Shown one piece after another: positions 1 through 64,000 of a DNA stretch of 64,000 bases (its first letter is position 1; each line of letters begins with the position of its first letter). Below the pieces are notes generated by a model. The model was not told where the DNA came from, ran no database searches, and was given only the letters and a program-made list of their open reading frames with translations. This stretch comes from Planctomycetota bacterium (GTDB lineage Bacteria > Planctomycetota > SZUA-567), in contig JAVBRG010000042.1 in NCBI GenBank assembly GCA_031548195.1, positions 566 through 64,565 on the forward strand, given 5' to 3'. A program made the position numbers and the translations under genes.

Positions 1-204
1 ACCGGGGGGAAGCGCAACTCGCCGGAATCCAGGACGATAAACCGTCGCTGGGTGGTTCCACTAAACACCCTATCGGTGTCAAAAATTACACCTCCGTAAG
101 ACAAGGAGCAAACGCCACTGTAGCGGTCGTCTATCGGCCTGGATTCCGGCGAGTTACGGCTTCCCCCCGGTTCAACGCTGGCGGCGCCGGAATGACGTGT
201 GGGG
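1..204. mobile_element. MITE-like palindromic element X, copy 1 (left end cut by the window edge)
   Basis: The arm at 1-33 (accggggggaagcgcaactcgccggaatccagg) pairs with 138-172 (cctggattccggcgagttacggcttccccccggtt). The outer arm ggcgccggaatgacgtgtgggg lies at 183-204. Collinear and highly similar to 20769-21012. Confidence 0.6.
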
Positions 205-270
205 GAGGGGTCGCCGTGACAAGATTCCGGAGAAGCGCATCTCCCGAATTTCAAAGTGTCCTCGGTATAA

Positions 271-361
271 TCGCCTCGTAACAGCGGTTTCTCGGCCTGG
301 ATTCCGGCGAGTTACGCTTCCCCCCGGTTCGACGTTCCCGGCGCCGGAATGACGTGTGGGG
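271..361. mobile_element. Element X, right-half copy only
   Basis: cgtaacagcgg..ggcctggattccggcgagttacgcttccccccggttcgacg..ggcgccggaatgacgtgtgggg matches the right arm of X. No left arm is present. Confidence 0.5.
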
Positions 362-378
362 TGGGTTTTGGCGTGACA

Positions 379-552
379 GGATGCGGATTGACGTAAGATT
401 TGAGATGCGCCCGGATGTGGATTGATGTAATAAGTGAGAGGCGCCCGGATGCGGATTGACGTAAGAATTGAGAGGCGCCCGAGTGCAGATTGACGTAAGA
501 AGTGAGAGGCGCCCGGATGCGGATTGACGTAACAAGAGTCGAGACGCGGACC
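379..552. repeat. 34-bp tandem repeat, 4 good units plus 1 degenerate unit
   Basis: Units start at 379, 413, 447, 481 and 515. Consensus ggatgcggattgacgtaagaattgagaggcgccc. The units abut directly with no spacers. Confidence 0.9.
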
Positions 553-992: not shown

Positions 993-1760
993 TCAACCAA
1001 TCCTCACTACAATACAACAACGTCCCCGACACCACCCCACCGGCATCAACAACATCCCCACAAACGGAATCAAAAACATCGCCTGCATCGCCACCCCAAA
1101 TCCCAACATCTCCCAAAAACGCTTGTCCACAAACAACCGCTTATGACGAAAACGCAAAAAATTCCGCGCCATCGAAGCATCCAAAAAACCAAACCCCGCA
1201 AAATACGCCCCCACCAAAAACAAAGGAATAAACCCCACCACAGGCACCAACAATAACGGCAATACCAATAAAGTACAACATAACTGCCGCAATAAATTCT
1301 TCAACGAATCGCCAAAACTCAACAAACCCGCCCTCGCCGTAAAACGCAACGGCAAACCCTGCTTCTCCACCCCACCCGTACACGCCGCCTCCACCCGCTC
1401 CGACAACATATCATTCAACGGAGACGCTAACGCCATCCCCACCCCGGTAAAAGTGAAAAACGCCGCCGCCAACGCCAATACAGACATAATAAACTTCATC
1501 AACCACCCCATACTATTCACCGCCGCCGACAACCACCGCCCCACCGGACCCAAAAACACCCAGTTGACTTCATAAATCTGCCACCGCCATAAAAAATACA
1601 GGTAAACCATAAACGCCAAACCATATAAAATTATATTCGCCAACAAAGGCAAAACCGCATAACGCTTCAACCCGTGATGCGTCAACAAAAACCTCGCACC
1701 AATAAACGGCAATCCAATACCCCGCCGAAAAGCTGAAAAATCAAAAGACGAACGTGACAT
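993..1760 (-). CDS. CysZ / EI24-family (DUF540) membrane protein
   Basis: 255-aa multi-TM ORF. LPLLANIILYG, ASPLNDMLSERVEA and FVGMLLMPVG parallel E. coli CysZ LPLLVNILLMG, AAPFNGLLAEQLEA and IMPVAVCG. Codon usage is extremely G/T-ending. Confidence 0.75.
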   Translation of the reverse strand: MSRSSFDFSAFRRGIGLPFIGARFLLTHHGLKRYAVLPLLANIILYGLAFMVYLYFLWRWQIYEVNWVFLGPVGRWLSAAVNSMGWLMKFIMSVLALAAAFFTFTGVGMALASPLNDMLSERVEAACTGGVEKQGLPLRFTARAGLLSFGDSLKNLLRQLCCTLLVLPLLLVPVVGFIPLFLVGAYFAGFGFLDASMARNFLRFRHKRLFVDKRFWEMLGFGVAMQAMFLIPFVGMLLMPVGWCRGRCCIVVRIG

Positions 1761-2509: not shown

Positions 2510-5074
2510 TCAATACCTGGCCATAATCTTGAAGTCCATGTCCTGGAAGGCAAAAATGCAGTCGGCCAATTCCAACGTGCACAGGTAAGTCAAATCAATG
2601 CAGTCGTTCTCAATCTGCCGCATCAACTCCCGCGCCCGCGCCGAATGGACGGTAATCCTCAGCTCCGAATAACGCACCGCCTGCTGCGTTTCGATGAGGA
2701 ACCCCCAGTCGGAGGATATCGCCAAAAACAGCTCCCGAACCGCCTGGTTCAAAGCCCGGATCAACAGGGGGTGCTCGGTGTACTTGTGCTTGGTGGCCAA
2801 ATCGCTCATCTTGTTCGCCAGCCGGAACATGTGCCGGTAAACCCAGCAGTTCGGCTGATAACTCCTGCCATCCACCCAAGTCTGGAAATAGTCCTTCTTC
2901 CCCCACGAACTGGCGCCCGGCATCATCTTCTGGTGAGTCGGGACTTCTCCGAGATATTCGGACGGAGTCACCGGCCGCACTTCCTGCTGATCGTAAAGCA
3001 TCTTCTTCAGGACCGACTCAATCCACATCGGCCCCTCTTCCCACCAATGGCCAAACAATTCCGCGTCGTAGGCCGAAACAATCATCGACTTCCGGTTGGT
3101 GGTTTGCAAAACGTGGTTCGCCTTCACCCCCCGGTAATAGGCGAACTGCCCGGCCTGCTCATGCACCGTGCCCTCGGCCCACATCGGGTTGTAATAATCC
3201 TTGTCGCCGAGATTGCCGCCTTTCTTGGTTATCCGGTAATACTTGATGCCGGTGTTGCGGCGAACATTCGCGGTGTGGAAATATTCCGGTAAATAATTCC
3301 ACTCCGCCTCGTAGCCGAGGTCCCGGTACCATTCCTTGTAATTGGGGTGGCCGGGATAACCGCCCTCGCGCGACCACACCGAAGCCCGGGTCTCCTCGTC
3401 AATGCCGAAGAACGCCACACCGTTCGGGGAAATGACCGGGGCGTCCGTTCCAAAGAAGGAGCGGGTGTCGCCTTCAGTTATGCCGTTCGCGTTCAGGAGC
3501 GCCCACTTGATGCCGGAGTCGGCGAGGAATTTGTCAATACCCGGGGTGTAGGCGTTCTCGGGCAGCCACATGCCGCGGGGGGGACGGCCGAAGACGCGGG
3601 TATACTGGTTGACCCCGGTCTGCACCTGCCCACGGACCGACTCGGGAATATGCTTGAAGAGGGGGAGAATCATGTGGGTCGCGGCACAGGTGATGACCTC
3701 GATTTTGCCCATGTCCTGGAAATCGCGGTAACCGCGGGTCAAATCGCCTTCGTAAGCGTCGAACACCTCCTTGGCAATCCAGAAGCGGTGCAGGGTCTGT
3801 TCAATCGTGTTATACCAGGGCTTACCTTTCGAATTGTCCCGCTCGCGGGTGGCGAGGCGGATCAATTCGTCGATGTGCCGGGCCGCCCGCATCTTCAGGG
3901 ACGGCGTCTGCATCATGGAAAGCAGCGAAGGCGTCAGGGACAGGGTAATGCGGAAATCGATCTTGTCCTTCTCCAGCCGCCAGAACAAGTTGAGCAGCTG
4001 GGTATAGACCGACACCACCGCCTCCATGAACCACTGTTCCTCCAGCGGCACATCGTACTCGGGGTGATGGATGAAGGGGAGGTGCTGGTGCAGGACCAGG
4101 GACCAATAGCCCTTTTCCTCCTGGGCGTAATGGGTGCGGTTTTTCCAATAATTATATTGGTTGAAACGCCAGTCCGAGGTCGGCACTTCGAGGATGACGT
4201 TATTGGGATCGACCTGAATGGACGGCCACTCCGCGTACTTCTGCTGGGTGGTGCGGGAATTCTTGGGGGCGTAGGCGGAATTCGAGCGGGCGATCATCTC
4301 GAAATATTCGGTGCCATTGGCGCGGTAGCCGAGTTCGGCGATATAATCGTTGTCCGGCTTCACCTTAATCCAGTACTCGTTCTTGTCGGCGAGGTAATCG
4401 TCGACTTCAAAAACGTTCTGGAAATTGAAGCCGTCGAACTCGATGCCGGTGACCTGGTAGACACGGAGAATCAGCCGGTTCTTGCCGAAAAAGTCGGCGC
4501 CGAATTTTTCCTTCAGGTTCTTGCGGCAGCCGTCGTCCACCTCCCACAGCACGTAAATGGTCTCGGGATCGCGCGGAACCAGGTAAAGGTAGGTTTGATT
4601 GTAGAACGGATCCAGATAAGGCACTTCCTTGAGAAGTTCAAGATCCGGCTTCACTCGAACCCCCTCCTCGCCTGGAATGCTGTCGCCCGGTTTCAAGCCA
4701 TCGTCGTAACTTATCGCCGCCCCCCGCTGCACGCCGGTATTCGCCGACACTCTCCCGCCGGTGCGGAGAACGTCGGGGAATTCGGCCGGTCGCTTGGAAA
4801 ACTCCTCTTCCGCCTCCACCGCCTTCAGGTTCAGGTTCGGCGTCTCGGCGGCGGCCGCCGCCAAACCGTGGGCCCCCACTCCCACGGCGACCGGGGAGCC
4901 GGGAGGCGGCTGCTGGAGAACGCGTTTGGCGTTGTCCGCCGCCGTCACCGGTTGCAGCAGGGGCGGTCGGACAAAAGGGGGTGCGTCGGAAAGGGCGGGG
5001 TCGCCTTTCGGCAAAGGGGGAGTGATCGGGGTCGGGGGAACGGCTGGAAGATCTTTTTTAATATCGTCAGACAT
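2510..5074 (-). CDS. GH57-family 1,4-alpha-glucan branching enzyme with Pro-rich and DUF4912-like N-terminus
   Basis: 854 aa. YLYLVPRDPETIYVLWEV (DUF4912-like), then the GH57 core YWSLVLHQHLPFIHHPEY, ITCAATHMILP and AYDAELFGHWWEEG. Confidence 0.85.
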   Translation of the reverse strand: MSDDIKKDLPAVPPTPITPPLPKGDPALSDAPPFVRPPLLQPVTAADNAKRVLQQPPPGSPVAVGVGAHGLAAAAAETPNLNLKAVEAEEEFSKRPAEFPDVLRTGGRVSANTGVQRGAAISYDDGLKPGDSIPGEEGVRVKPDLELLKEVPYLDPFYNQTYLYLVPRDPETIYVLWEVDDGCRKNLKEKFGADFFGKNRLILRVYQVTGIEFDGFNFQNVFEVDDYLADKNEYWIKVKPDNDYIAELGYRANGTEYFEMIARSNSAYAPKNSRTTQQKYAEWPSIQVDPNNVILEVPTSDWRFNQYNYWKNRTHYAQEEKGYWSLVLHQHLPFIHHPEYDVPLEEQWFMEAVVSVYTQLLNLFWRLEKDKIDFRITLSLTPSLLSMMQTPSLKMRAARHIDELIRLATRERDNSKGKPWYNTIEQTLHRFWIAKEVFDAYEGDLTRGYRDFQDMGKIEVITCAATHMILPLFKHIPESVRGQVQTGVNQYTRVFGRPPRGMWLPENAYTPGIDKFLADSGIKWALLNANGITEGDTRSFFGTDAPVISPNGVAFFGIDEETRASVWSREGGYPGHPNYKEWYRDLGYEAEWNYLPEYFHTANVRRNTGIKYYRITKKGGNLGDKDYYNPMWAEGTVHEQAGQFAYYRGVKANHVLQTTNRKSMIVSAYDAELFGHWWEEGPMWIESVLKKMLYDQQEVRPVTPSEYLGEVPTHQKMMPGASSWGKKDYFQTWVDGRSYQPNCWVYRHMFRLANKMSDLATKHKYTEHPLLIRALNQAVRELFLAISSDWGFLIETQQAVRYSELRITVHSARARELMRQIENDCIDLTYLCTLELADCIFAFQDMDFKIMARY

Positions 5075-5230: not shown

Positions 5231-6082
5231 TCACGTCCCCGTCCGGACCGACACCAAATCGAGAAAATCCTCGGGATCGACCTTGTCCACCGCCAGGACC
5301 AAAATTCTCCGTTCCTCGAGCATTTGAATCGCCTCCCCCACCACCTGCGACAAATCCGTCGCGCTGACATTGTGAAACACCACGTTCAACTTCTCAATCT
5401 TCTCCAAACGCTCCGCCATTTCCCGCAACTTCCGGTACAACGCCAAATGCAGCAGCAAATCGGCCCGCAGCTTCTCCAGCGATTCCGGCTTCTTCTCCAA
5501 ATGCTCCACCTCGAAAGCGTTTCTGTCCGCATAAGTGACTATGGAATTAGCCAGCCCCACCACCTCCTCCTCGCTCGGGGGAACATAACTCGCCCCCGCC
5601 GGACTGGCGGCGATCGCCTCGTCGACCCTCCGCTGCAATTCGGTGAGGCGGCGTTCCAATTTACCCTGCCGGTCGATAAGCCGGCTGTGCCTGCCCCAAC
5701 GGAGCGGCGTGATCAGATGGTTCCACCATTTCAGCCGGGCGATGACGAACGCCATCGATTGGGGGGGAAAGACGCCGGATTTGATGCTGTCGGCCTTTTG
5801 GGTGATTTGTTCGGAGGAGCGGATAATCACCCCCCACACGGTCCAGGCGAGCAGCACCGCGAAGAATACGAAAGAGGCCTTGGCCAGCCCGGGTTTGCCG
5901 AAAATATACAGGGCGGCCGATACCAGCAGGGTGACAATCAAGGTGGCGAAGGAGGTTGCCGGCGTGTCTTCGAAGGAACTACCGCCACGGGACACCATGT
6001 CGTCGCCGGTGCGCTGGCAGAAGAAGTCGAACAAATTGGGGACGTGCAGAACGTCCTCACGCGATTCGTTTGCTGCATCCAT
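5231..6082 (-). CDS. Hypothetical membrane protein with C-terminal coiled coil
   Basis: 283 aa with ATG at 6082. Two TM helices (TLIVTLLVSAALYIF, FVFFAVLLAWTVWGVII), then heptad-like LERRLTELQRRVDE...LREMAERLEKIEKL. Confidence 0.55.
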   Translation of the reverse strand: MDAANESREDVLHVPNLFDFFCQRTGDDMVSRGGSSFEDTPATSFATLIVTLLVSAALYIFGKPGLAKASFVFFAVLLAWTVWGVIIRSSEQITQKADSIKSGVFPPQSMAFVIARLKWWNHLITPLRWGRHSRLIDRQGKLERRLTELQRRVDEAIAASPAGASYVPPSEEEVVGLANSIVTYADRNAFEVEHLEKKPESLEKLRADLLLHLALYRKLREMAERLEKIEKLNVVFHNVSATDLSQVVGEAIQMLEERRILVLAVDKVDPEDFLDLVSVRTGT

Positions 6083-6883: not shown

Positions 6884-7912
6884 TCACCTCGCTACCGTTT
6901 CCAGATCCAAGCCGTCCCGGACTCCCGCCTCGTACAGCCGGGTCGCCCGCGCCGCAATCATCACCGCGTTGTCGGTGCATAACGCCAGCGGAGGAACCGC
7001 CAATCGCATGCCCGCCGCCGCCACCGCCGCCGCCATTTTATCCCTTAAATATCCGTTCGCCGCCACCCCGCCCCCCAGCGCCAGCCACTTCACCCCCACC
7101 CGCTTCGCCGCCGACAGGGCCCGGCTGACCAGGGCGTGCGTCACCGCCTCCTGAAAAGACGCCGCCGCATCCTTCACCCCCTGTTCGTCCAGAAGGAGTT
7201 CCCCCTTCCGGCCCGCCCTGCCCCGCGCCGCGTACATCACCGCCGTCTTCAAGCCGCTGAAGGAAAAATTCTCGCCGTCCGGCGGCAGGCACGACTGCCG
7301 CCAATTGTACGCGCCGGCATTCCCCCCCTTGGCCGCCTTTTCTATCCGGGGCCCCCCGGGGAAGCCCAAACCCAGCAGCTTCGCCGCCTTGTCGAAGGCT
7401 TCGCCGGCGGCGTCGTCCAGGGTCGTTCCGAGGCCGGTCATGCTCGCGCGGCCGTGGGCGGGGTCCTCGACCAGATAAAGATTGCTGTGACCGCCCGACA
7501 CCACCAGGGCGACGTAGGGGAAACGCAATTCAGGATTGGCGAACTCGGCGGCGGCGATGTGCCCTTCGATATGGTCAACCCCTATAAGCGGTTTTCCCCA
7601 GGCCAACGCCAATGCCTTGGCGGCCGACACCCCCACCAGCAAGGCGCCGATCAGGCCGGGACGGTTCGTCACCGCCACGGCGGAAAGATCCGCCGGATTC
7701 ACCTTGGCGTCGGCGAGCAGTTTGTCCACGCCGGGGAGCAGGCATTCCATGTGGGCGCGGCAGGCGACTTCGGGGACGACCCCGCCGTAAGCGCGGTGCA
7801 GATCGATTTGACTGGCGACAAATTGGGACAGGACTTCGCGGCCGTTTCTGAGAATGGCGCCGGCCGTTTCGTCGCAGGACGATTCGAGGGCGAGGACAAG
7901 GGTCTCGGGCAT
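6884..7912 (-). CDS. tsaD: tRNA N6-adenosine threonylcarbamoyltransferase TsaD
   Basis: ATG at 7912 (MPETLVLALESSCDETA...). GVDHIEGHI and GGGVAAN motifs. The track ORF's N-terminal 74 aa are a spurious extension. Confidence 0.92.
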   Translation of the reverse strand: MPETLVLALESSCDETAGAILRNGREVLSQFVASQIDLHRAYGGVVPEVACRAHMECLLPGVDKLLADAKVNPADLSAVAVTNRPGLIGALLVGVSAAKALALAWGKPLIGVDHIEGHIAAAEFANPELRFPYVALVVSGGHSNLYLVEDPAHGRASMTGLGTTLDDAAGEAFDKAAKLLGLGFPGGPRIEKAAKGGNAGAYNWRQSCLPPDGENFSFSGLKTAVMYAARGRAGRKGELLLDEQGVKDAAASFQEAVTHALVSRALSAAKRVGVKWLALGGGVAANGYLRDKMAAAVAAAGMRLAVPPLALCTDNAVMIAARATRLYEAGVRDGLDLETVAR

Positions 7913-7935: not shown

Positions 7936-8565
7936 TCAAATCGGTTCCGTTTCGATAATCCGCGCCGGCGTCACCACCTTGTGCATCGGCATGTCGGCGT
8001 CTGTTTTCGGAATGGCCGGATATACCTGAAAATCGTACCCCGCACCCACCCGGTGCATATCCCGGTATTTTCTGAACAAGGCGTCGTAAACCCCCGCCCC
8101 CCGGCCCAAACGGTCGCCGTCTTCCGAAAAACACCGCCCCGGCGCAATCGCCAGCTGGATTTCCCCGCCCTTCGCCACCGGGCAGGTATCATCCGGCACC
8201 AGAATCCCCCCCTTGCCCTTGACCAATTGCCGGTCGAGGTCGTCGACATAACGCAAACCCACTTCCGCCTCGCCCAGCCACACCGGCAAGGCCAAAACCC
8301 CGCCCTCCTCCAGCCAGCGGCGCATGAAGTCGGTAATATCCGCCTCGTCCGGCAGGGCGGAGTAGCCGAGAATGGGACCGGTGGCGTTTTCCAGCGCCAC
8401 GTCCCACAGCTGCTCCAAAAGTTCCGCGTCCAGGCGCCGGCGCTTCTCGCACGGATTCAGGGCAAACTGTTCCCCCGCCAATCGCCGCCAGCGCTTCTTC
8501 GCCTCCCGCACCTCATCCTTGGCATCGTCAGGCATATGCAACCGTTCATCCTTCGCTTTCAACAT
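7936..8565 (-). CDS. 5-formyltetrahydrofolate cyclo-ligase
   Basis: 209 aa of the MTHFS family (ALPDEADITDF..LALPVW..PGRCFSEDGDRLGRGAGVYD). An alternative ATG at 8535 would avoid overlap with apt. Confidence 0.8.
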   Translation of the reverse strand: MLKAKDERLHMPDDAKDEVREAKKRWRRLAGEQFALNPCEKRRRLDAELLEQLWDVALENATGPILGYSALPDEADITDFMRRWLEEGGVLALPVWLGEAEVGLRYVDDLDRQLVKGKGGILVPDDTCPVAKGGEIQLAIAPGRCFSEDGDRLGRGAGVYDALFRKYRDMHRVGAGYDFQVYPAIPKTDADMPMHKVVTPARIIETEPI

Positions 8566-9070
8566 GCATCAGCGACTCGACCCGGTACTTCGCCAAATTT
8601 TTACGGCCGTGCAGGAAATCCAGTTCAATCAGGAACCCCAAACCCGTCACCGTTCCCCCCTCGCGTTCAACCAATTTCACCATCGCCTCGGCCGTCCCGC
8701 CGGTCCCCAGCAGATCGTCCACGACCAGCACCTTTTCCCCCGGCTTAATCGCGTCCTGGTGCATGTGCAGGATGGCGGTGCCGTATTCCAGTTCGTAGGC
8801 CTGCTCGTAGGTTTTCCAGGGTAGCTTCCCGGGTTTGCGGATGGGGACTATGCCCCAGCCCAGCTTGTAGCCCAAAGCCGCCGCGAACATGAATCCGCGC
8901 GCCTCGGCGGCGCAGACCTTGCTGGCGCCGCTTTTGCCGAAGCAGTCGGCGAACCAATCCACCGCGTATTTGAAGGCTTTGGGATCTTCGAGGACGGGAG
9001 TGATGTCCTTGAAATAAATGCCCGCTTTGGGAAAATCGGGGATGGTGCGGATAATGCGGTTTAGGTCCAT
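8546..9070 (-). CDS. apt: Adenine phosphoribosyltransferase
   Basis: ATG at 9070 (MDLNRIIRTIPDFPKAGIYFKDITP). PRPP motif VLVVDDLLGTGGT. Confidence 0.93.
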   Translation of the reverse strand: MDLNRIIRTIPDFPKAGIYFKDITPVLEDPKAFKYAVDWFADCFGKSGASKVCAAEARGFMFAAALGYKLGWGIVPIRKPGKLPWKTYEQAYELEYGTAILHMHQDAIKPGEKVLVVDDLLGTGGTAEAMVKLVEREGGTVTGLGFLIELDFLHGRKNLAKYRVESLMHVESEG

Positions 9071-16675: not shown

Positions 16676-16687
16676 TTCATCCTCCGT

Positions 16688-18169: not shown

Positions 18170-18186
18170 GGCTGTTTTCCTTTTGT

Positions 18187-18218
18187 CAAGCGGCGATTGA
18201 ACCGCCAATCGCCGCTTG
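18187..18218. repeat. REP-like hairpin directly after the binding-protein gene (intercistronic)
   Basis: caagcggcgatt gaaccgcc aatcgccgcttg. Confidence 0.75.
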
Positions 18219-18233
18219 GCAAAAATCGTTGGT

Positions 18234-19214: not shown

Positions 19215-19319
19215 TGCTCTTCCTCTCATTGATCAAAAACAGGGTCGGTCCCCACACGGGACCCGGAATCATAATAAGCGGGCAAGCTCCCCAAAAACCC
19301 CCATGGAGGCGCCCACGGG

Positions 19320-20672: not shown

Positions 20673-20768
20673 GCGTGCCGCTTTCTGTTGTCTGGGGATA
20701 CGATGAAAAGAATTTTCCCAATTACAGCGCGCAACCGGCAAAACCGCCTCCTGTTACCCCGGACACCA

Positions 20769-21012
20769 CCCCACACGTCATTCCGGCGCCATTGACATTG
20801 AACCGGGGTGAGGCGTAACTCACCGGAATCCAGGCCGATAAACCGCCGCTCCGTCGCTCGGTGGTTCCACTAAACGTCCTATCAGGGTCGGAACTTACAA
20901 ATCCGTACGACAGCAAGCAAACGCCACGGTAGCGATTGTCCTTCGGCCTGGATTCCGGCGAGTTACGCTTCCCCCCGGTTGAACGCTTGCGACGCCGGAA
21001 TGACGTGTGGGG
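20769..21012. mobile_element. MITE-like palindromic element X, complete copy, inside an ABC operon
   Basis: Outer arms ccccacacgtcattccggcgcc / gacgccggaatgacgtgtgggg. Inner ~36-bp arms aaccggggtgaggcgtaactcaccggaatccaggcc / ggcctggattccggcgagttacgcttccccccggtt. Lies in the 397-bp gap between the ATPase stop (21070) and the permease start (20672). Confidence 0.7.
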
Positions 21013-21035
21013 AGGGAACAACGTAACAGCGCACG

Positions 21036-21064
21036 AAATTACGTAACAATGTTGAGATGCGCCC
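21036..21064. repeat. Single unit related to the 34-bp repeat, adjacent to X
   Basis: aaattacgtaacaatgttgagatgcgccc, compared with attgacgtaagatttgagatgcgccc at 386-412. Confidence 0.5.
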
Positions 21065-21069
21065 TACCA

Positions 21070-53866: not shown

Positions 53867-56800
53867 TCACCGCAGGCGAATATTCCGGATCAACGACGTC
53901 GCCGGAGCCTTGCCGTCGCGATAGAGGAAAAATCCCGCCCGACCCGTGCGGTCCTTGCCGATCAATTCCCGCCCCGGTCCGCCGCCTGGTGACAACAGAC
54001 GGAAATCGCGGCCGGTCAGGGAAAATTCCAGCTTGTTCCAGCCGTTCTGCAATACCGTCGACGGCGTTTCGTAATCGACCCAGCCCTTCGGACTTTGCAC
54101 CGTGAACACCATGGACAATGCCGCCGTACCGACCCCGTCGTAGTATGCCTCAAGGGTTACCTGTCCGGCGCCGGATAAATCCTGCGTCGGCGAAAGCGTC
54201 CGGTACACGGCCACCCGGCCCTTCGCCGCCGCCTGCAAATCCATCTTCAAGGCCCGGCCGCCCTGCCCGTCCGATATGGCGCCAATCTTACCCGGGTCGC
54301 TCCAGGACGGCATGCGCCACTGGGCCGCCGTGTCCGGACCGAATTCGTCCCACAGCGCGCCGGCCCGCGCGGGGTCGCCGGCCAGGCGGTCCGGAATGAC
54401 TTCCCTCACCGGCTCGGCCCGGACTTCGCCCCCAAGCTTTTCCGGTTCGAGGACAATTCCCTCCTCCGCATTGCCGGACAGGAAATAATTCAGGGTCCGG
54501 CTTAAAAACCGCAACGGCCGCCGGCTGTCACGGGTGACCCCACCCTCGCGTCGCCAGTCCTGATAAGTCGCCACCGCCGCCAGTTTGCCACCCAGCCATA
54601 ACGCGTCCGCCTTCTCGCCCTCGCCCAGCTGGTGCTTGGCCGAAAGCGGTTCAACCTCACCACCCGCCGCCTTGGACAAACGTTCCAGCTGCCGCACCGT
54701 CCTGTCCCGATCCGGCGAGTCCAGCCAGATGTGCCCGCCGGATTGGAGATAAGCCGCGACCCGCTTCACCGCCGCGTCCGGCCAATCCGCCATTTCCTCC
54801 GGCGTCAAGAGGGCTAGCAGGGTGTCGGACAAATTGCCGTCCTCCGGCTTCACCCGCCGGCTCTCGACCGTAAGCCCCCGGGGAAGCCGCGCCTTGAGTC
54901 TACCGAACAAATCCTCGCCCGCGTCGTCCGACCGGCCGGCGAAATCGCCCAGCACCAATAGCAGGCTGTCCATGTCGACCGCGCTCGCCGCCGTCCCGAC
55001 GACGCGTTTGCGATCCCGGCGTTCCATCCGCTTCCAGTCGCTGTCGGATACCGGCAACGACACCACGTCCAGGCCGAACTTCCCGCCGCCGTCCCCGAGA
55101 ACGGAGCGTCCCAAACCCTGGCCGCCGTCCCCCTGCCGCCTGCCAATCCCGGCGCCGCCGAAGCCGCCGGCCAGATCGTCAAACCTGCCCTCGCCGACCC
55201 CGCGACCGCTGCCCCGTCCGGACCCGCCGGCGCCGCTGCCGCCGCCACCCTTGCCGCCGGTGCCGTTTCCGCCCCCGCCCCCATTGCCGCCGCCCCCCGG
55301 CCCGTCGCCGGCGTTGCCGCGACCGCCCCCGCCCGGACCGGCGCGATCACCCGTGCCGGTAGCGTCGCCGGAGCCGGTTCCATTGCCGGTCCCGGCCATC
55401 AAGCCCGGAACCTTGCCGCCGGGTTCGCCGCTGCCGCTGCCGGATTTATCGCCGATTCCCTGACGGTCGCCGCGACGTTGTCCGCCGCGGGGGCCCGCTT
55501 CGAGACCGGTACCGCCCTTCCCCGCCCGGGCAAAATCGGCACGCTCGCTGCCACCGCCTTCCCCAAAGGGATTGGGCGCCGCGCCGGTTCCTTCGCCGCC
55601 GTCGCCCAGAAGGGTCGTAAGCGCTTTGCCGGTCCCGTCCCGGTTCCCTTCGGGTCCGCCGGCTGCTCCGCCGGAGGGTTCGCTGTCAAAACGTTTTTCC
55701 TTGGCCTGATTGCCGCCGGAAGGCGCGCTTTTGGACCGGCTTTCCCCTTGTCCGGAGGCGTCGGAGGCGACGGCCCCGGACAGACTGGCGCCGGTTCCGC
55801 CGGGAATGCCTCCCTGCCGGTTCGGCATGCTGCGGGCTGCGCGGGGCGCTCCGCCCCGGCTCTGCCGCTCGGCGCCACGAACCAGGGCGAGTTCCGGCAG
55901 GTCCGTCCCCGATTCGCCGCGCGGATGCGAATCGTTCGTCGGAGCATTCAGGTACGACGCCGCTTCCGGCATCACCACCCCCTGCTTGGCGCCGAGATAA
56001 TCCGCTCCGACCGCCCGCGCTTCAGGCCGCAACTCTTCAATTCCCGGAGGCCCCTCCGCGTTGTGTTTCGGTTCGGCGGAGACGACTTTTTCGGCGTCGC
56101 GGATCGGATCGGAAATTTCCGCCCGGGGTTCCGGCTGGGTATCCGGGGTCTCGCGGGGAGTCCGGCGACGCCCCTGGGGATCGATACGGCGGACGGTGGG
56201 GTCCAGGGATACCTTTTCCACACCGCTGGCTTCGGCAAGCAACAATCCCTGTTCCGGCGACAAATTCTCGCGGGGGCGCTCACCGTCCGACCACTTCGCG
56301 CGGGCGCTCTCGGCCTGCTCGACAATGTCCGGCCGGGCTTCGTCGATTTGCCGCTCGGTTGCGTTCTCGGCGGGTTTTTCGCTGGGCGCGGCCGCCGAGG
56401 CGGGTTCGGCCATTTCCAGAAGTTCGGGGAATTCCTGTTCATCCGGCGCTTGTTCCAAGCGCTGATTTCGCTCGGGCATGCGCTCGCGGCGGCGCATATT
56501 CTTCTGCTCCGCCACTTCGTCCTGGAAGGACATCGCCGACGGCCGCAACGAATCCTGGGTCAACCGGAGATTTTCATTGGGAGCGCTGTCGGGGAGTTCG
56601 ACCGGGCGTTCGCTCACCAATGCCCCGCCCGACGTCGAGGACGCGGCGGAGGCCGACTCGGCTCCGGCGTCGGCGAAGGAAAGTTCCCCGGGGCTGGCGC
56701 TCTCGCCCCCTCCACTGTCGACGGATTCGCGGGCGCTGACCGCCGTGAGCATTTCCTGTTCGGCGGGACTGAATTCAATCACGCCGGACGCTTCGGGGTC

Positions 56801-59554
56801 GGCTTCGGAGAGACTGACGGTAATGCTGGGTTCGGCCCGGGCGACATCGGTGGAGGCGGCCCCGAGCATCAGGATGAAGGCGACGAGCAGCATTATATTG
56901 GCAATGGCCGAGGCCAAAAGGAATCGGGCCAGGGCGCTTTTTCCCAAGCGGTACAGAATGTAGGCAAGAAGCAACAGGAGAAGCAAAAGCAACAGCATGG
57001 CCGCCAGAATGTAAATCCACCAGGCGCTCCAAAAGCTGTCACCCTTCTTGGCCTTGCCGGGATCGGGGAACGTGAAATCGGCCGGTGCGGCGGGAGCTCC
57101 CGTCACCGGAGTGTCGTGGAACATTTCGGCGGTTTTGTCGAAGGGTGACTCCACTGGCTCCGGCAAGTCGCCGGGTTTTTCTTCCCAAAGATCCCGACCG
57201 GGCTCCAGTTCGTCCTTCAGGGGCGCGTGTGTAACACCCAGTTCCGGCGGCTTGGGGACGCCCTGCACCGGTGCCAGTTCCGCCGGCTCCGCCTCATACG
57301 CCTTCACCCGCCAGCGAAGAGGGATTGCCAAAGCGCCCGGCCCGGCGCTTAAACTCAGGATCCCGTTGTACTCGCCCTCGGCTTGGTTCATCGGGGCGGA
57401 AGCGGTGACCTCGAGGTCAAGGGTGCCCGAACCCGGTGACACTTCGCGATACGGATTCGCCAGCCGGAGATTATCGTTCCCCGCAACGCCGGCGGACAGC
57501 GGCGCCGCCTTATCCGCCTGGTAGGGAATTTTCAGGACGTGGCTGGTAAAGGTGCCGGGCGGGACCGTACCCAGATCCACCGGGTCGCCCCCGTCGAACC
57601 GCACCGTTCCCACCCGCACCCGCGCAGCTACACTATCGCCCATTTCCATGCCGTCGGAAATACTGAAGGCGCCCTGGTAATCGCCCGGGCGCGCCTCGGC
57701 GGGAATGGCGATTTCCAATTCCAGGGAACGCCGGCCGGGATTGAACACGAGGGCGGTGGACAACTCCTGCAGGCCAATCCCGGAGTCGTGCCAGGTCAGG
57801 TCGAGGGTCAGCTTCTGCGCCGAACGCGCGTCCAGGGCGATGTCCGCGAAGGCGGTCCCGGTTTCGCCGGGGAACAGCACGCCGAAGTCCAGGGCGTCGG
57901 CAATGCCGGCCCAGCCCGGCGGCGGATCCCGGGATTTAATGGCCAGACCCGAAGTTTGCCGGATGAATTCGCCCTGCTCCCAGGCCTCCCCCGAGGCGCG
58001 CAAGGTCAGGTCGAACTGGTCCGGAGCATCCGGCAATGCAATGTCAATGCCATACACGCCGTCGCCGGCGGCGCCGTCGCCGTGTCCGCCGTCGTCTAAA
58101 AGTTGTAGGCCGTCCGGCAAAACGCCCGGCACCGGCATAACCCACACCCGGGCGCCTCCGAGTGGACTGAAGCCCTCCGCCAGCGTGGCCGCGACGGCGA
58201 AGCGGCCGCCCCGCAGCTGGGGGGGGAACATGTCGAGAAAGAACTGGGTGTCGGCGGAAAGGGCCAGAACCGAAAGGCCCGGAGTCGCGCGTTCCCAGGT
58301 GAATTCCCATTCGCCCGGGTTCGGATTGGCTTGATGGATGTTTGTCGCCTTGCTATTCGTATCCAGGCCTTGGCCGGGGCCGGTCATGCCGACGCGGGCG
58401 CCGCCGTCGACCATGGCGGAAAGGCGCCGCACGGCGCCGTCCACGGGGAATTTGGCTACGCCGGCGGAGGCGTCGAGGATTTCCGTACGGAGGAGCTGGC
58501 GTTTGCCCAGTTCCGCCGCGAGGCGGGCGTAAATATCCGGCAGGTCCGCGTCCTTTGCCGCCTTGAAGTACATGCCGTCGGTGGCATCGGCCATCTCCTT
58601 CAGGAGATTGTGGTCGGTTTGTTCGCTGAGGCCGACGGCGAAGATGCGCACGCCCCGACGGACCGCCTCCAGATGCGTGTTGAGGTAATCCGACCCTTCG
58701 TTCTTGCCGTCGGTAAGGAAGACGATCACCGGCCGTCGCGAACCGCCCAGTTCCTTCAGCGCGGCTTCGAGGGGTTTGTCGAGGTCGGTCATGCCGTCAG
58801 CGCTGATGCCGTCGAGAACCTGGAGGAGTTTGTCGCCTTCGGCGAGAGGGAGCAGCGGTGTGTCGAGGGAGGCTTTGTGATTGAAGGTGACTAGGCCGAT
58901 GCGGCCGATGCCCCCGGATTCGCGGGCGGTTTCGATGAAGGATCGGGCGGCGGCGACCCGGAGTTTGTTGGGGTCGTTATGCAACATGCTGAGGCTGATG
59001 TCGACGACCAGGACGACGTCCACGAGTTCCGCCGCGTAGCGGGAGCTGCCCTCGGCCTCGCCTTCGGCGAGCGGGGTTCCGCCGGGGGCGTAAACCACCC
59101 GGACGGTCGCCGGCCCCTCGCCTTCCTGGGGAGGAACGGCCCGGGCGTCTACGAATACCTTGTAACCGTTGCGCCAAACATACAGGCCACCAGCCCGGTA
59201 GCGTTCCTGTTTCCCTTCAGCCGGCTTCAAGCCTTTCGGGTAGACGAAAACCTGGAAATCCCCCGGTCGCACCACCGTTTGCGGGCCGATGCGGTGGAGG
59301 GGAAGATTGAGGACCATCTTGACATTGGCCGGGTAACGGGGGTCCCCCAAATCCTGGGTGAGCAGGGCCGCGTGCAGCGGTTCGACCGTTTCCGCCGCCA
59401 GCGCTCCGGGCGTCGCCGCCAGGGTTGACCACAGTAAAACCAGTACGGCGGAAAATTCCGGCCAAAAAGCGACAGCCGGCCGGGCCGGGTGCTGCACGGC
59501 GCCGCCGGTCGGAATTTCGGCTTTGTGTTTTGGGGTGACCCGCATGTGCGTCAT
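53867..59554 (-). CDS. 1895-aa membrane protein: signal peptide, vWA domain, Ig-like region, TM hairpin, long acidic/Gly-rich linker, DUF4159-like domain, C-terminal beta-sandwich
   Basis: vWA MIDAS VVLVVDISLSM...TDG at ~58507-59023. TM pair FWSAWWIYILAAMLLLLLLLLLLAYILY / FLLASAIANIMLLVAFILMLGAA at ~56850-57040. The Gly-rich tract is GGGGNGGGGGNGTGGKGGGGSGAGG. DUF4159-like LLALLTPEEMADWPDAAVKRVAAYLQSGGHIWLDS. Confidence 0.8.
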   Translation of the reverse strand: MTHMRVTPKHKAEIPTGGAVQHPARPAVAFWPEFSAVLVLLWSTLAATPGALAAETVEPLHAALLTQDLGDPRYPANVKMVLNLPLHRIGPQTVVRPGDFQVFVYPKGLKPAEGKQERYRAGGLYVWRNGYKVFVDARAVPPQEGEGPATVRVVYAPGGTPLAEGEAEGSSRYAAELVDVVLVVDISLSMLHNDPNKLRVAAARSFIETARESGGIGRIGLVTFNHKASLDTPLLPLAEGDKLLQVLDGISADGMTDLDKPLEAALKELGGSRRPVIVFLTDGKNEGSDYLNTHLEAVRRGVRIFAVGLSEQTDHNLLKEMADATDGMYFKAAKDADLPDIYARLAAELGKRQLLRTEILDASAGVAKFPVDGAVRRLSAMVDGGARVGMTGPGQGLDTNSKATNIHQANPNPGEWEFTWERATPGLSVLALSADTQFFLDMFPPQLRGGRFAVAATLAEGFSPLGGARVWVMPVPGVLPDGLQLLDDGGHGDGAAGDGVYGIDIALPDAPDQFDLTLRASGEAWEQGEFIRQTSGLAIKSRDPPPGWAGIADALDFGVLFPGETGTAFADIALDARSAQKLTLDLTWHDSGIGLQELSTALVFNPGRRSLELEIAIPAEARPGDYQGAFSISDGMEMGDSVAARVRVGTVRFDGGDPVDLGTVPPGTFTSHVLKIPYQADKAAPLSAGVAGNDNLRLANPYREVSPGSGTLDLEVTASAPMNQAEGEYNGILSLSAGPGALAIPLRWRVKAYEAEPAELAPVQGVPKPPELGVTHAPLKDELEPGRDLWEEKPGDLPEPVESPFDKTAEMFHDTPVTGAPAAPADFTFPDPGKAKKGDSFWSAWWIYILAAMLLLLLLLLLLAYILYRLGKSALARFLLASAIANIMLLVAFILMLGAASTDVARAEPSITVSLSEADPEASGVIEFSPAEQEMLTAVSARESVDSGGGESASPGELSFADAGAESASAASSTSGGALVSERPVELPDSAPNENLRLTQDSLRPSAMSFQDEVAEQKNMRRRERMPERNQRLEQAPDEQEFPELLEMAEPASAAAPSEKPAENATERQIDEARPDIVEQAESARAKWSDGERPRENLSPEQGLLLAEASGVEKVSLDPTVRRIDPQGRRRTPRETPDTQPEPRAEISDPIRDAEKVVSAEPKHNAEGPPGIEELRPEARAVGADYLGAKQGVVMPEAASYLNAPTNDSHPRGESGTDLPELALVRGAERQSRGGAPRAARSMPNRQGGIPGGTGASLSGAVASDASGQGESRSKSAPSGGNQAKEKRFDSEPSGGAAGGPEGNRDGTGKALTTLLGDGGEGTGAAPNPFGEGGGSERADFARAGKGGTGLEAGPRGGQRRGDRQGIGDKSGSGSGEPGGKVPGLMAGTGNGTGSGDATGTGDRAGPGGGGRGNAGDGPGGGGNGGGGGNGTGGKGGGGSGAGGSGRGSGRGVGEGRFDDLAGGFGGAGIGRRQGDGGQGLGRSVLGDGGGKFGLDVVSLPVSDSDWKRMERRDRKRVVGTAASAVDMDSLLLVLGDFAGRSDDAGEDLFGRLKARLPRGLTVESRRVKPEDGNLSDTLLALLTPEEMADWPDAAVKRVAAYLQSGGHIWLDSPDRDRTVRQLERLSKAAGGEVEPLSAKHQLGEGEKADALWLGGKLAAVATYQDWRREGGVTRDSRRPLRFLSRTLNYFLSGNAEEGIVLEPEKLGGEVRAEPVREVIPDRLAGDPARAGALWDEFGPDTAAQWRMPSWSDPGKIGAISDGQGGRALKMDLQAAAKGRVAVYRTLSPTQDLSGAGQVTLEAYYDGVGTAALSMVFTVQSPKGWVDYETPSTVLQNGWNKLEFSLTGRDFRLLSPGGGPGRELIGKDRTGRAGFFLYRDGKAPATSLIRNIRLR

Positions 59555-61021: not shown

Positions 61022-61069
61022 CGAGCTCTCCAAGTATAAGGGCAATTCTGCCGAGACCGTATTAACGCC

Positions 61070-61474
61070 GCATTACCGCTTTGCGTAATCTGGTCCAGCG
61101 GCTCGCTGGTTGCGGGGGTTCTAGGGGGGCGCAACCAGCCCCCTTGTTTTGTGCGGTTGTAAAAAAGTCAAATAGCGGTTAAGCGGTGAAACGGTTTTGA
61201 AACGCGGTTAATGGGCCGCGTAAACAATTCGGCAATGCAACACTTGGTATAACCTATCAGAAACTAGTTACGCGGCCCCACCTTTCAGAGCAAACAGCGC
61301 CGAAGGCGCGTCTTTGCGTCCGGGCGGCCCCGAAGGTATCGAATGTAAAACGGGCGGCCCCGAAGGTATCGAATGCAAAACGGGCGGCTCCGAGGATCGC
61401 GTCTTCAGGACCGGGCGGCCACATACTTCGCGAATTCAGGCCGGGGGGGTCTGGGGGGCGAAGCCCTCCCAGAA
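61070..61474 (-). repeat. Structured intergenic element Y, copy B (inverted relative to 554-926), forming the exbB upstream region
   Basis: Its reverse complement is collinear with 554-926. It ends about 50 nt upstream of the exbB ATG. Confidence 0.8.
61321..61440. repeat. 30-bp tandem repeat x4 inside Y copy B (two near-perfect units, two degenerate)
   Basis: cgggcggccccgaaggtatcgaatg(t/c)aaaa at 61321 and 61351. Degenerate units at 61381 and 61412. Copy A carries only ~1-2 units. Confidence 0.8.
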
Positions 61475-61513
61475 CGGAAACCAAAAGAACCACTCTCCGT
61501 CCCGATAATTCAC

Positions 61514-64000
61514 TCACTTACCTCCCGTCACCTGACTCTGCAAATCCCGCGCTTCCTCCGCTGCCGGCGTATCGCCGTAACGCGCCAGAACCCGCTCCAG
61601 GTCGCCAATCGCCTTGTCGCGGAAACCGTCCGCCAAAGCCGAACGCGCCGCCCGGAGCAAAGCCGCCGCCGCCCACTCGGGATAATTCGGATACAAGGAA
61701 TCCACCGCCAAAAATTCCAGCCGCGCCTTCGCGCTGTCGCCCGCCAACGCGGCCGTCATCCCCAAGCCATAACGCGACTTCGCCGCCGTCTCCGTCGTCT
61801 TGTCCACCGCCAGCGACTGTTCAAAAGCCGCCGCCGCATCCGCGTAGGCACCCAAATTCAAATTCGCCTGACCGAGACCCCAATACGATTCCTGCACGTA
61901 GGGGCCGTCGGGATTCAAAAGAATCCGCCGGAATACCTCTCTGGCCTCGCCGGACTTCCCGTCCAAAAGCAGGCACAATCCCTCGCCGTACTGCGCCGCC
62001 TGCAGGTACGGCGCGTCCGGACCGCCCCGCTCCAGCGCCTGGCGGTATCTCTGCACCGCGCTCTCGAACCAGGCCCCCCGGCGCGAGACGTCCGTGTTGT
62101 CCTGCCCCGAACGCCGGCGCATTTCCGCCGCCCGAAAACAGGCGTCACCGATCAAATCGCTCTTAGGATACTTGCCGATTATCATTTCAAAAGCGTCGAT
62201 GGCCGCCACCCGCTTGTCCCACATGCTCTTCCGTTCCGCCTCGCGGCGTTTGGGATCGGGGTCGGACAAACTCGCCTTCTCCGCCGCCTCGGCCCGGCGC
62301 TGAATGCTCCAGGCCAAACGGTACTGCGCCTTGTCGGCGAGGTCCGAGTTCCTTTCCGACGCCGCCGCCTGGGCGTTCTGGTAGGCGGTGAAGGCGCCGT
62401 CGAAGTCGCCGCGATCATAAAGGATTTCACCAATCCGAAGCCAGGCGGCGTCGACAACCGGATAATCCGGATAACGGCTGGTCAAGCCCCGCAGCGCCGC
62501 GAGAATGTCGTCCTCGGCTTTACGAACCCCCGTGGACACGCCGTTCAATTCGTCACGAACCTTCATGACCGCGGCGCGATCCGCCGCGGGCAAATCCTCC
62601 GCCTGCCGGCCGCCGGTCAGTTCCTTCAAACGCTCCTCCAAATCCCGCGCCTTCTTCGCGTCCGGTTTAATCTGGTTCCAAAGCGCCCAGGAACGCTGGT
62701 ACAAGGCCTGGGGAACGTCGGCGTGTTCCGGATGCTCGGACAGGAATTTCTGGAAAGCCGCCGCCGCCTCGGCGTGCCGGCCCAGTTCATCCAGGGCGGA
62801 GGCGCGTTCGAGACTCGCCTTGGCGGACAAAGCATGGTTCGCGTACTCGGCGAGGAAACGATCCAGATCCGCCAATGCGCCTTTGGCGTCCCCGTTCGCG
62901 CGACGCAGGGACGCCCGGAGCGCCAGGGCGTCGGGACGGAGGGGACTATCGGGGAAGGAGTCGACGACCTTCGTCGCCGCCTCAATCGCCCCGGCGTCGT
63001 CGCCGAGATCCCGCTTGGCCCAGGTCACCCCGAACCAGGCGGCGTCGGACAGTTCACCCTTGGCGTCGGCTTCGAGACTCTTACGGTAATCGTCCAGGGC
63101 CTCCTTTTTCTGGCCGAGGCCGTAACGGGCTTCGGCAAGATAGTAGCGCGGCCGGGCCATGTTCAAGCCTTCCGGCGGGTCACCCAGGACCGCCATCAGG
63201 TTCCGGGCCGCCTCCTGCAGGCTGGCGTTCCGGCGCTTGTCATCCGTTTCTTTCTGGCCATTCTTCAGGAGAAGCGTTCCCAGGCGCAACTGGCCGTAGC
63301 CGATGGTCGATCCGACCTTGTTCTTGCCCAATTGCAGGGCAAGCTTGAGGCACTCCTCGTAACGTTGGCGGGCGGCGGCCAAATCCTTGCCGGCCTCGGA
63401 AATTTCCCCCAGCCGGAGGAGAGCCATCGCCGTTTGCGCAGCCGCCGGGAAACGCTTGACGATTTCCTCGTAGAAGCCGGCCGCCCGGGGATAATCGTTC
63501 ACGAAATAGTATGACTCGCCCAGGCGGAACAGGCTGTCGCCGGCGTATTCGCGGGCGCGGGGGGCGAGGGTGGGGTCGCCCTTCCCTTGCGGGTCCTTCC
63601 AATTTTCCGACCACTTTTCGCCGTCGGCGGCCAGCCAGCGGTACTGCTCGCGGGCGCCGGGGACGTCCCCCAGAATCGATTGGTAATCGGCCAGGGCCCA
63701 GGCGGCCTGCAGGCGGGTTTTGGCGTCGGGGTAGGCAATGGATTTCTTCAAGGCGCCGGCGGCTTTGGCGATGCGGTCCTTTTTGCCGGATTCGTTCGTC
63801 TCGGCCTGGGAAAGCTCCCTTTCGGCCAAGGCCTGGTGATACAACGCCCAGGGGGCGCGTTCGGTTTTGGGCCAGCGCTCGGCGACTTCGGCGAATTCCT
63901 TCGCCGCCTCGTCGTAGCGGCCGGCGTCGAGGAGGACTTCACCGAGAAGCGAGCGGGCCTCCAGTTCCTCGTCCCCGAGTTTACCCAAGGCGAGGGCGCG
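61514..64000 (-). CDS. TPR-repeat protein (5' end outside the window)
   Basis: >820 aa of consecutive TPR-like units (AxxxYxxAL..GdyxxA). The reading frame is open to the window edge. Confidence 0.8.
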   Translation of the reverse strand, partial: RALALGKLGDEELEARSLLGEVLLDAGRYDEAAKEFAEVAERWPKTERAPWALYHQALAERELSQAETNESGKKDRIAKAAGALKKSIAYPDAKTRLQAAWALADYQSILGDVPGAREQYRWLAADGEKWSENWKDPQGKGDPTLAPRAREYAGDSLFRLGESYYFVNDYPRAAGFYEEIVKRFPAAAQTAMALLRLGEISEAGKDLAAARQRYEECLKLALQLGKNKVGSTIGYGQLRLGTLLLKNGQKETDDKRRNASLQEAARNLMAVLGDPPEGLNMARPRYYLAEARYGLGQKKEALDDYRKSLEADAKGELSDAAWFGVTWAKRDLGDDAGAIEAATKVVDSFPDSPLRPDALALRASLRRANGDAKGALADLDRFLAEYANHALSAKASLERASALDELGRHAEAAAAFQKFLSEHPEHADVPQALYQRSWALWNQIKPDAKKARDLEERLKELTGGRQAEDLPAADRAAVMKVRDELNGVSTGVRKAEDDILAALRGLTSRYPDYPVVDAAWLRIGEILYDRGDFDGAFTAYQNAQAAASERNSDLADKAQYRLAWSIQRRAEAAEKASLSDPDPKRREAERKSMWDKRVAAIDAFEMIIGKYPKSDLIGDACFRAAEMRRRSGQDNTDVSRRGAWFESAVQRYRQALERGGPDAPYLQAAQYGEGLCLLLDGKSGEAREVFRRILLNPDGPYVQESYWGLGQANLNLGAYADAAAAFEQSLAVDKTTETAAKSRYGLGMTAALAGDSAKARLEFLAVDSLYPNYPEWAAAALLRAARSALADGFRDKAIGDLERVLARYGDTPAAEEARDLQSQVTGGK

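Follow-up and report, generated by a model that had tools for sequence, protein, structure and literature searches.

Why should most genes of one bacterium favor C at their silent sites near the start and G near the end, on either strand and over hundreds of codons? The question is raised by a 64,000-nt stretch of a Planctomycetota genome (contig JAVBRG010000042.1, 62% G+C; this whole stretch is called the window below), for which an original prediction, made from the letters alone, had described a polar switch from C-ending to G-ending codons inside genes. A self-trained codon model called 44 genes in the window, and a second run from a composition-independent start returned the same set. For each gene the codon index was correlated with G versus C at codon position 3, and the result was expressed as a z score against a null in which synonymous codons were permuted within the gene among sites of the same amino acid. 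Pfam searches of the window recovered RecG, Fe-ADH/gldA, P-type ATPase, LptF/G, PPK1 and ExbB/ExbD, three sugar ATP-binding cassette (ABC) transporter cassettes with URO-D-like genes, an AMP-binding/PP-binding/hexapeptide protein and a VWA protein, in agreement with the gene labels given earlier, while a tRNA and Rfam search of the window gave no matches. RecG homologues place the organism among uncultured Planctomycetota, with best identities of 94% and 89%, followed by about 73%, and 46% to Thermogutta.

The C-to-G gradient is real and strong, and it is no artefact of amino-acid composition. The four 60-nt counts from which it was first described are exact (9241-9300, G14/C24; 10501-10560, G32/C10; 25441-25500, G12/C29; 27661-27720, G28/C15). 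The C3 to G3 trend was positive in 35 of the 44 genes, with a mean z of +2.3; z exceeded 2 in 20 genes and fell below -2 in two, and the highest values belonged to ppk (+10.1), a TPR-repeat gene (+8.4) and recG (+7.8). Averaged over all genes as a metagene, the G/C skew of the sense strand at third positions (GC3 skew) lies at -0.19/-0.25 over the first 60% of the gene and reaches +0.20 in the last 10%. Fourfold degenerate sites alone reproduce this curve, and the G+C content of third positions (GC3) is flat along genes. By quintile, the window values are -0.25, -0.20, -0.18, -0.05 and +0.14, and those of the related genome GCA_031555915.1 (L081; RecG 89% identical to that of the window) run from -0.39 at the start to +0.25 at the end. 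The metagene confirms a polar shift, hundreds of codons long, that depends on position in the gene, and the effect persists under within-amino-acid permutation, the control that the original prediction had itself named as able to overturn it. The word 'flip' suits only part of the data: comparison of step and linear fits showed a sharp switch in some genes and a gradual gradient in many others, so that neither shape can stand for all genes.

It is extremely improbable that a chance cluster, amino-acid composition, gene miscalls, or assembly and polishing errors in a metagenome-assembled genome produced the pattern. Regional heterogeneity does widen the variance of z even among control genes (standard deviation 1.29), yet the window differs from 879 such genes with a Mann-Whitney p of 5e-9, the trend survives both the within-amino-acid permutation and restriction to fourfold sites, and the reading frames are intact. 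It also repeats in the independently assembled genomes GCA_031548865.1 and GCA_031555915.1 and in the metagenome contig QMCE01000597.1.

The gradient is confined to one Planctomycetota clade, within which its strength varies. Comparison loci comprised RecG loci of species-representative genomes, PPK loci of metagenomes and contigs of close relatives, together with 150 kb of Escherichia coli K-12, all passed through one identical pipeline with genes of at least 200 codons. Under these conditions the window (34 genes) has a mean z of +2.6, GCA_031548865.1 (RecG 94%, 19 genes) +3.1, L081 (14 genes) +4.4, contig L089 (PPK 79%, 10 genes) +2.3, and the pooled loci L084 and L004 (RecG 71-73%, 16 genes) +1.85. 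The mean falls to +0.5 in L082 (GCA_965328725.1; RecG 72%, 15 genes) and to -0.1 in L002 and L003 (RecG 50-62%, 19 genes), compared with -0.05 for 879 genes from 104 other bacterial loci and +0.66 for 101 genes of E. coli. In L081, recG by itself reaches z=+11.3. Seven syntenic orthologues with a weak gradient in L082 (fourfold skew by thirds of -0.17/-0.15/-0.04) move, from first to last third, from -0.26 to +0.37, -0.25 to +0.28 and -0.34 to +0.36 in the three strong genomes. The derived change relative to L082 is mostly a gain of G in the last third of genes, not a gain of C at the start; the strongest genes, recG, ppk and tsaD, are shifted at both ends. Among the three genomes 30-40% of fourfold sites differ, and their skew profiles nonetheless coincide. 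Between zones the polarised substitutions show a reciprocal difference in rate (C>G.087 vs.139, G>C.158 vs.081). The gradient is actively maintained and at equilibrium in the clade. Sister lineages with strong, moderate, weak and no effect make a comparison of gene content feasible, for which rho, mfd, ung, mutM/mutY, rnhA/B, topA and the translesion polymerases are the candidate genes.

The shift has the same direction in every codon family. Comparison of the first 40% with the last 25% of genes shows a rise of G/(G+C) in all eight fourfold families, that is, for Ala (.32 to.60, p=6e-22), Pro (.53 to.76), Thr (.22 to.46), Arg (.46 to.64), Ser (.39 to.58), Val (.40 to.54), Leu (.57 to.70) and Gly (.27 to.38). 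Lys, Glu and Gln codons move from A to G, C/(C+T) falls slightly at twofold codons, and the synonymous first position of Leu moves from C to T, TTG/(TTG+CTG) rising from.23 to.38 (p=4e-8), while the balance of CGG and AGG for Arg does not shift. For all preceding and all following bases the log-odds shift lies within 0.63-1.06, and this evenness rules out a dinucleotide or context effect. Skew zones were defined by fourfold G/C skew and, in a separate run, by twofold sites. Across the zones of the fourfold set, T/(C+T) at twofold pyrimidine codons is.20,.30 and.42, G/(A+G) at twofold purine codons.52,.59 and.70, and TTG/(TTG+CTG).15,.30 and.46, with AGG/(AGG+CGG) steady at.18 to.21. Across those of the twofold set, fourfold sites change from.60 to.35 for C,.30 to.51 for G and.053 to.096 for T, with A and T/(T+G) constant. 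The axis is therefore G+T against C+A, as in classical strand asymmetries, and is neither G+C content nor 'C content'. Because this axis is uniform across codon families and independent of context, it points to a pressure acting on nucleotides and not to an effect of tRNAs.

The same pressure reaches sites under amino-acid constraint. G-C skew rises along genes by +0.08 at codon position 1 and +0.10 at position 2 (bootstrap intervals exclude 0 and controls are flat), and the codons of replaced residues in the last third of genes are enriched in G relative to L082 (+0.24 in L081, p=.003; +0.17 in the window, p=.05). The change had been described as synonymous, which is mostly correct, except that codon positions 1 and 2 shift likewise, as do the first positions of Leu codons and amino-acid replacements; the pressure suffices to bias the composition of proteins. 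Dominance of CTC and AAA early in genes was also claimed, and this does not hold, as CTG exceeds CTC and AAG exceeds AAA already in 5' parts. In 30 control loci with G+C above 55% (from L005-L080 and L090-L168), local G-C skew at positions 1 and 2 correlates negatively, within genes, with fourfold skew (r=-0.21, p=1e-30), which looks like compensation between codon positions. Such compensation was rejected as an explanation for the clade, where the correlation is +0.13, or -0.01 after detrending, against the -0.21 of the controls.

The pattern is tied to gene boundaries. Of the single predictors, relative position in the gene performs best (log-likelihood gain 95-112 in the window, 188-205 in the clade), ahead of distance to the start or to the stop; the clade gains are 188 for a linear model, 205 for a quadratic one and 217 for a two-anchor exponential whose length scales are about 700 codons measured from the start and about 250 measured from the stop. 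From 150-codon genes up to those above 800 codons, the swing in log-odds stays about the same (0.8-1.5); the slope per relative length hardly changes, and the slope per 100 codons declines sixfold with gene length. A gradient over transcription units was rejected, since grouping genes by spacing fitted no better than single genes. Centred on junctions, the top-strand skew drops from +0.10 to +0.21 on the left to -0.10 to -0.13 on the right, a drop common to tight tandem, loose tandem, convergent and divergent pairs, where controls are flat. Strong sign changes in the window number 18 downward and 13 upward; 12 of the 18 downward jumps fall no more than 150 nt from a gene boundary, many of them no more than 50 nt, where about 20% would be expected by chance, compared with one of the 13 upward jumps. 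The largest positive-to-negative drop of plus-strand third-position skew (D=1.19) coincides with the tandem junction upstream of ppk (37531..37603), and the second largest (D=1.07) with a divergent intergenic junction (29682..29849), where the local 80 bases have 34% G+C. Where 6 nt separate two genes, the reset comes about 25 codons late. In flanks of up to 150 nt the skew is +0.01 upstream and +0.03 downstream, with tandem spacers counted as both.

Viewed on the plus strand, genes of either orientation are C-rich at their left and become G-rich toward their right. A gradient of this form is invariant to reverse complementation, and its occurrence on both strands is consequently no proof that it follows transcription, translation or the sense strand. 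The polarity that had been put in sense-strand terms thus stands as polarity, and its presence in genes of both strands is no evidence that it tracks the sense strand.

What, then, could drive it? The likeliest single cause, which we put forward tentatively, is a strand-asymmetric bias of mutation or repair that is linked to gene expression and whose balance shifts along the gene. At the gene start the sense strand would lose G relative to its complement, possibly through transcription-coupled repair biased to the template strand that leaves guanine lesions of the sense strand unrepaired; at the gene end the sense strand would lose C and gain G and T, possibly through growing exposure or damage of the non-template strand; and both layers would sit on a general preference for C-ending codons. 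The mutational driver and these two molecular steps are proposed from sequence patterns. A mutational origin is favored by the uniform direction of the shift, by site classes that co-vary along the G+T versus C+A axis, and by the extension of the shift into protein sequence. It is further favored by the finding that the gradient is strongest in recG, ppk and tsaD, which are expected to be weakly expressed, as genes of this kind are normally those whose silent sites experience the weakest selection. The rapid turnover of strength among lineages together with active maintenance of the profiles argues in the same direction, as does a gene for an EI24-like membrane protein (described below), which demonstrates that extreme strand-specific silent change is possible while 80% of the protein is conserved.

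Several observations weigh against a mutational cause. What sets the zones apart in the polarised substitutions is the C<->G transversions and possibly G>T; the C>T and A>G transitions, which a deamination model predicts, showed no zone difference, the counts being small and the parsimony noisy. The attempt to separate deamination from fixation bias by polarised spectra had low power and an ambiguous outcome. No mutational process known to us combines a change of sign within genes, scaling with gene length and a reset within 0-25 codons of the start codon at junctions of 6-23 nt. The equal drop at tandem, convergent and divergent boundaries is not predicted by simple promoter- or terminator-centred models. 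A sawtooth due to exposure of Okazaki fragments was set aside by reasoning alone, since such a sawtooth would slope the other way and keep one sign throughout.

The Rho termination factor prefers C-rich, G-poor RNA and has a role in silencing antisense RNA, and this suggests another explanation, in which selection acts on the composition of nascent RNA (Rho surveillance or avoidance of R-loops) such that RNA entering a gene from either boundary would start C-rich and G-poor. In its Rho variant, ribosomes would shield translated sense RNA, untranslated sense or antisense RNA would be loaded by Rho and terminated, and the G-rich 3' zone of the sense strand would be the C-rich start of the antisense RNA. 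We regard this as a serious but less probable candidate. That RNA of the kind Rho prefers should stand at 5' ends was called counter-intuitive in the original prediction, a remark that is fair as a puzzle. It accounts for the locking of the pattern to boundaries of every orientation, including the clustering of downward jumps within 150 nt of them, for the resets at junctions of 6-23 nt, and for the Rho-like composition of 5' zones, such as 10 G and 32 C per 60 nt of the recG sense strand. Rho utilization (rut)-like composition, meaning about 80 nt or more that are C-rich and G-poor, is found in 5' zones as composition only, and the pooled fourfold skew of recG there is about -0.7; a prediction model for Rho-dependent termination has been published (PMC6144790). 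The reciprocal C>G and G>C rates are compatible with a fixation bias, and selection of this kind need not scale with a gene's own expression, which is compatible with the strong gradient in recG. On the other side, a rule of 'maximise C, minimise G' predicts movement of C versus A and of T/(T+G), and neither moves (Arg CGG/AGG and the constant T/(T+G) described above); the selection would have to be strong enough to alter amino-acid positions in weakly expressed genes; and the near-total loss of C3 in the EI24-like gene is hard to see as adaptive. The effect on predicted mRNA folding is also small: the 5' half loses only about 3% in stability relative to synonymous shuffles and the 3' half does not differ from them, a difference that leaves little for selection on mRNA structure to act on, and the latter was rejected as a cause.

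If all intergenic regions fired in both directions, a promoter-proximal asymmetry could decay inward from both gene ends and sum to a sawtooth, an analogue of the skew N-domains between human replication origins. Such a mutational footprint of pervasive bidirectional transcription would yield a strand-symmetric, boundary-centred pattern, and it gains from the slightly better fit of the two-anchor exponential (217, against 188 and 205) and from junctions within operons that lack resets. It is nevertheless unlikely, because the 3' G zone is as strong beside a convergent downstream neighbour as beside a tandem one (+0.12 vs +0.14), and because tandem junctions of 25 nt or less, which leave no room for a promoter, have 3' G zones of +0.21. 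One convergent pair with a 3-nt gap is without 3' G zones, yet other convergent pairs have them. The equal strength beside convergent neighbours also excludes a downstream promoter with divergent antisense transcription as the source. Taken together with this bidirectional variant, the mutation or repair explanation becomes somewhat more probable than its negation. Less probable than any of these, and already disfavored, is translational selection that grows along the gene, in which codons ending in G would gain in accuracy or processivity and a chain would cost more to abort the further it has grown, a model reportedly due to Eyre-Walker and to Stoletzki. Its direction agrees with the weak E. 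coli trend, and a weak increase of codon bias along genes is described in the literature summarised in PMC2777431. Against it, every codon family shifts the same way regardless of its tRNA set, C/T changes occur in codons read by one tRNA, and Leu CTG/TTG as well as positions 1 and 2 shift; the slope tracks relative and not absolute position, with the sixfold drop per 100 codons noted above; and the effect is strongest in recG and weakest in binding-protein genes that are probably well expressed. Protein domains and co-translational folding were rejected as a cause, as ppk is monotonic over four domains and the cycles of the GH57 gene do not fall on Pfam borders.

We consider it an even proposition that this sign-reversing strand asymmetry at the scale of single bacterial genes reflects either a new position-dependent regime of mutation or repair, or a genome-wide composition code that licenses Rho to remove untranslated sense and antisense RNA. 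If so, it would be the first strong prokaryotic counterpart of the 5'-C/3'-G skew of fungi, with a cause that is tractable by comparative genomics.

The pattern has precedents. McLean & Tirosh (PMC3315797) found that the genes of nearly every unicellular fungus have a C bias at their 5' end and a G bias at their 3' end, affecting fourfold sites and amino-acid usage alike, and left the cause open. The fungal layout matches that of the window in its two biased ends and intermediate middle, in the site classes affected and in its dependence on lineage, and mutational and adaptive hypotheses have both been offered for it. The fungal genes differ in being eukaryotic, transcribed by RNA polymerase II and organized as single-gene units; their skew reaches promoters and untranslated regions, which the short intergenic flanks here, at about 0 with each tandem spacer counting as both upstream and downstream, may not share; their AT skew is uniform, whereas T-A skew rises here as well; and unlike them, the genes of the window can reset over 6-nt junctions or share a gradient across an operon.

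In E. coli, a pervasive positive gradient of G at third positions was reportedly noted by Hooper and Berg in 2000, and a weak G3 gradient was reproduced in our E. coli control, where GC3 skew goes from 0.00 to +0.14 by quintile. As in the clade, G3 reportedly rises there in most neighbouring-base contexts, but the change in the clade is about three to five times larger (0.39-0.64 vs 0.14), the sign reverses, and positions 1 and 2, flat in E. coli, shift. Our literature search found no strong gene-scale skew sawtooth described in Planctomycetota or other bacteria. The clade is an extreme bacterial case of intragenic skew gradients that are weak in E. coli and clear in yeasts.

Better known position-dependent effects on synonymous codon usage act over short ranges and involve A/T-rich codons or mRNA structure near the start or stop, including the 5' codon ramp, which decays within tens of codons (Hockenberry et al. 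2014, PMC4069614), and a 3'-terminal preference for AT-rich codons (Zahdeh & Carmel 2019, PMC6892556). The gradient of the clade, in contrast, exchanges G against C at flat GC3 over whole genes. It was rightly distinguished from the 5' ramp: the best start-anchored exponential has a scale of 400-700 codons, relative position fits better still, and A3+T3 beyond the first tenth of the gene is.18-.22, so there is no ramp-type enrichment of A/T-rich starts. In bacterial genomes, replication and transcription leave the leading or non-template strand with more G than C and more T than A (reviewed in PMC2031905), and with these skews the pattern shares its axis, the 3' zones and the EI24-like gene resembling an exaggerated non-template-strand signature. 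Classical skews keep one sign over a replichore or gene, while here the sign reverses within genes and 5' zones are opposite. A replication-type skew of one sign is not what was found, given 18 downward and 13 upward strong sign changes per 64 kb with the downward ones tied to gene boundaries. Nor is the canonical transcription skew (sense G>C and T>A), whose sign occurs only in 3' zones and a few genes, as C exceeds G over the first 60% of genes.

Among individual genes, the strongest gradient belongs to ppk (polyphosphate kinase 1; 35365..37530, minus strand, z=+10.1), which carries four Pfam domains and is fitted better by a line than by a step. The protein is identical to one encoded on a 72,462-nt NCBI contig, and the source contig therefore reaches about 8 kb past the window. 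For recG (9212..11347, minus strand, z=+7.8), whose homologues are listed with RecG Pfam domains, the fourfold skew pooled over three related genomes begins at about -0.7 (5' end) and climbs to +0.8 (3' end). The pooled profile of tsaD (6884..7912, minus strand, z=+6.5) runs from -0.6 to +0.6 and resets immediately past a 23-nt junction, with a downward jump at 7909, while the reset of a 283-amino acid gene (5231..6082, minus strand, z=+4.7), in which no Pfam family was found, lags by about 25 codons past a 6-nt junction. The 174-amino acid apt gene (8546..9070, minus strand, z=+4.1) completes the full swing of -0.6 to +0.6 despite its shortness. In the AMP-binding/PP-binding/hexapeptide-repeat gene (44729..48694, minus strand, z=+7.0), labelled 'Pls-like' earlier, the switch is rather sharp at about codon 320, a step fit leads by 8 log-likelihood units, and an upward jump at 47695 agrees with the flip placed near 47.7 kb. 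The TPR-repeat gene (61514..64000, minus strand, z=+8.4), cut by the window edge, passes gradually from C-type to G-type.

Two long genes have two or three cycles each, which do not match Pfam domains. One is the VWA-domain gene (53867..59545, minus strand, 1892 amino acids, z=+5.1), where internal downward jumps at 55773 and 59107 divide a single open reading frame (ORF) into two or three skew cycles, in place of the one broad transition that had been described for a gene of 1895 amino acids; positions 55001-56000 within it have 73% G+C and coincide with the second C-type block and the internal reset at about 55.8 kb. The other, a GH57 branching-enzyme-like gene (2510..5074, minus strand), goes from C to G overall, with internal resets off the Pfam domain borders. 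The genes for an unknown 393-amino acid protein and a Ser/Thr kinase (37604..39980, minus strand) are largely G-type. Of the genes said to be G-type throughout, those for MTHFS, the kinase and 37604-38785 are largely so, and the MBL gene is mixed.

Three paralogous sugar ABC cassettes (Peripla_BP_4, BPD_transp_2 and double ABC_tran) occupy 15731-31881, together with a fourth, lone binding-protein gene, two interleaved URO-D-like genes and an AraC regulator. The gradient is clear in the ATPase genes of two of the three cassettes and weak in the third. Two cassettes lie on the minus strand (15731..23604), with ATPase z values of +4.8 (16688-18169) and +1.6 (21070-22620), the latter being the weak case. 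On the plus strand, the operon of sugar-binding protein, permease, ABC ATPase and URO-D genes (24124..28823; ATPase z=+4.2) stays C-type for about 3 kb and switches to G inside the ATPase gene, which bears out the claim that the gradient can cross tightly packed operon genes. The binding-protein and permease genes of the cassettes are C-type throughout; they show the strongest C bias of any third positions in the window and lack a gradient, among them the permease at 15731-16675 that had been singled out for this (fourfold skew -0.28 at the 5' and -0.30 at the 3' end).

An extreme G+T state is that of the EI24-like membrane-protein gene (993..1760, minus strand), where third positions are A.07, C.03, G.56 and T.34, overall G+C is 49%, and the skewed block begins and ends abruptly near 900 and 1850. 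Compared with L081, the gene shows 52 C>T against 4 T>C changes, 37 A>G against 9 G>A, 27 G>T against 11 in the reverse direction and 22 C>G against 5, at 80% protein conservation. This G+T state may be the same pressure taken to its limit. The self-trained gene finder overlooked the gene, an example of how gradients of this kind mislead gene finding based on codon usage; expression prediction, detection of horizontal transfer and substitution models may be distorted likewise in these genomes. The conserved C-terminus of the EI24-like protein, 'VVSGTLLYCSEDW...GFVPP', lies in another frame (931-1116, minus strand), which indicates a frameshift or sequencing error near 1000-1020.

Outside the clade, four Candidatus Omnitrophota loci (L044, L051, L054 and L019; 5-11 genes per locus) have a moderate gradient of the same sign, with mean z of +0.9 to +1.4 and a last-minus-first-third skew of +0.16 to +0.26, and a weaker gradient may thus occur in that phylum. 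At the apparently non-coding left end of the window, positions 379-536 hold a 34-nt tandem repeat of 4.6 copies (85% match; consensus GGATGCGGATTGACGTAAGAAGTGAGAGGCGCCC), in which spurious ORFs encode repeated peptides; having no spacers, it is not like clustered regularly interspaced short palindromic repeats (CRISPR). Just downstream of the EI24-like gene, a 9-bp inverted repeat read by eye at 826-866 (GGTTCTGCC ... GGCAGAACC), with runs of G and C alongside, may be a terminator.

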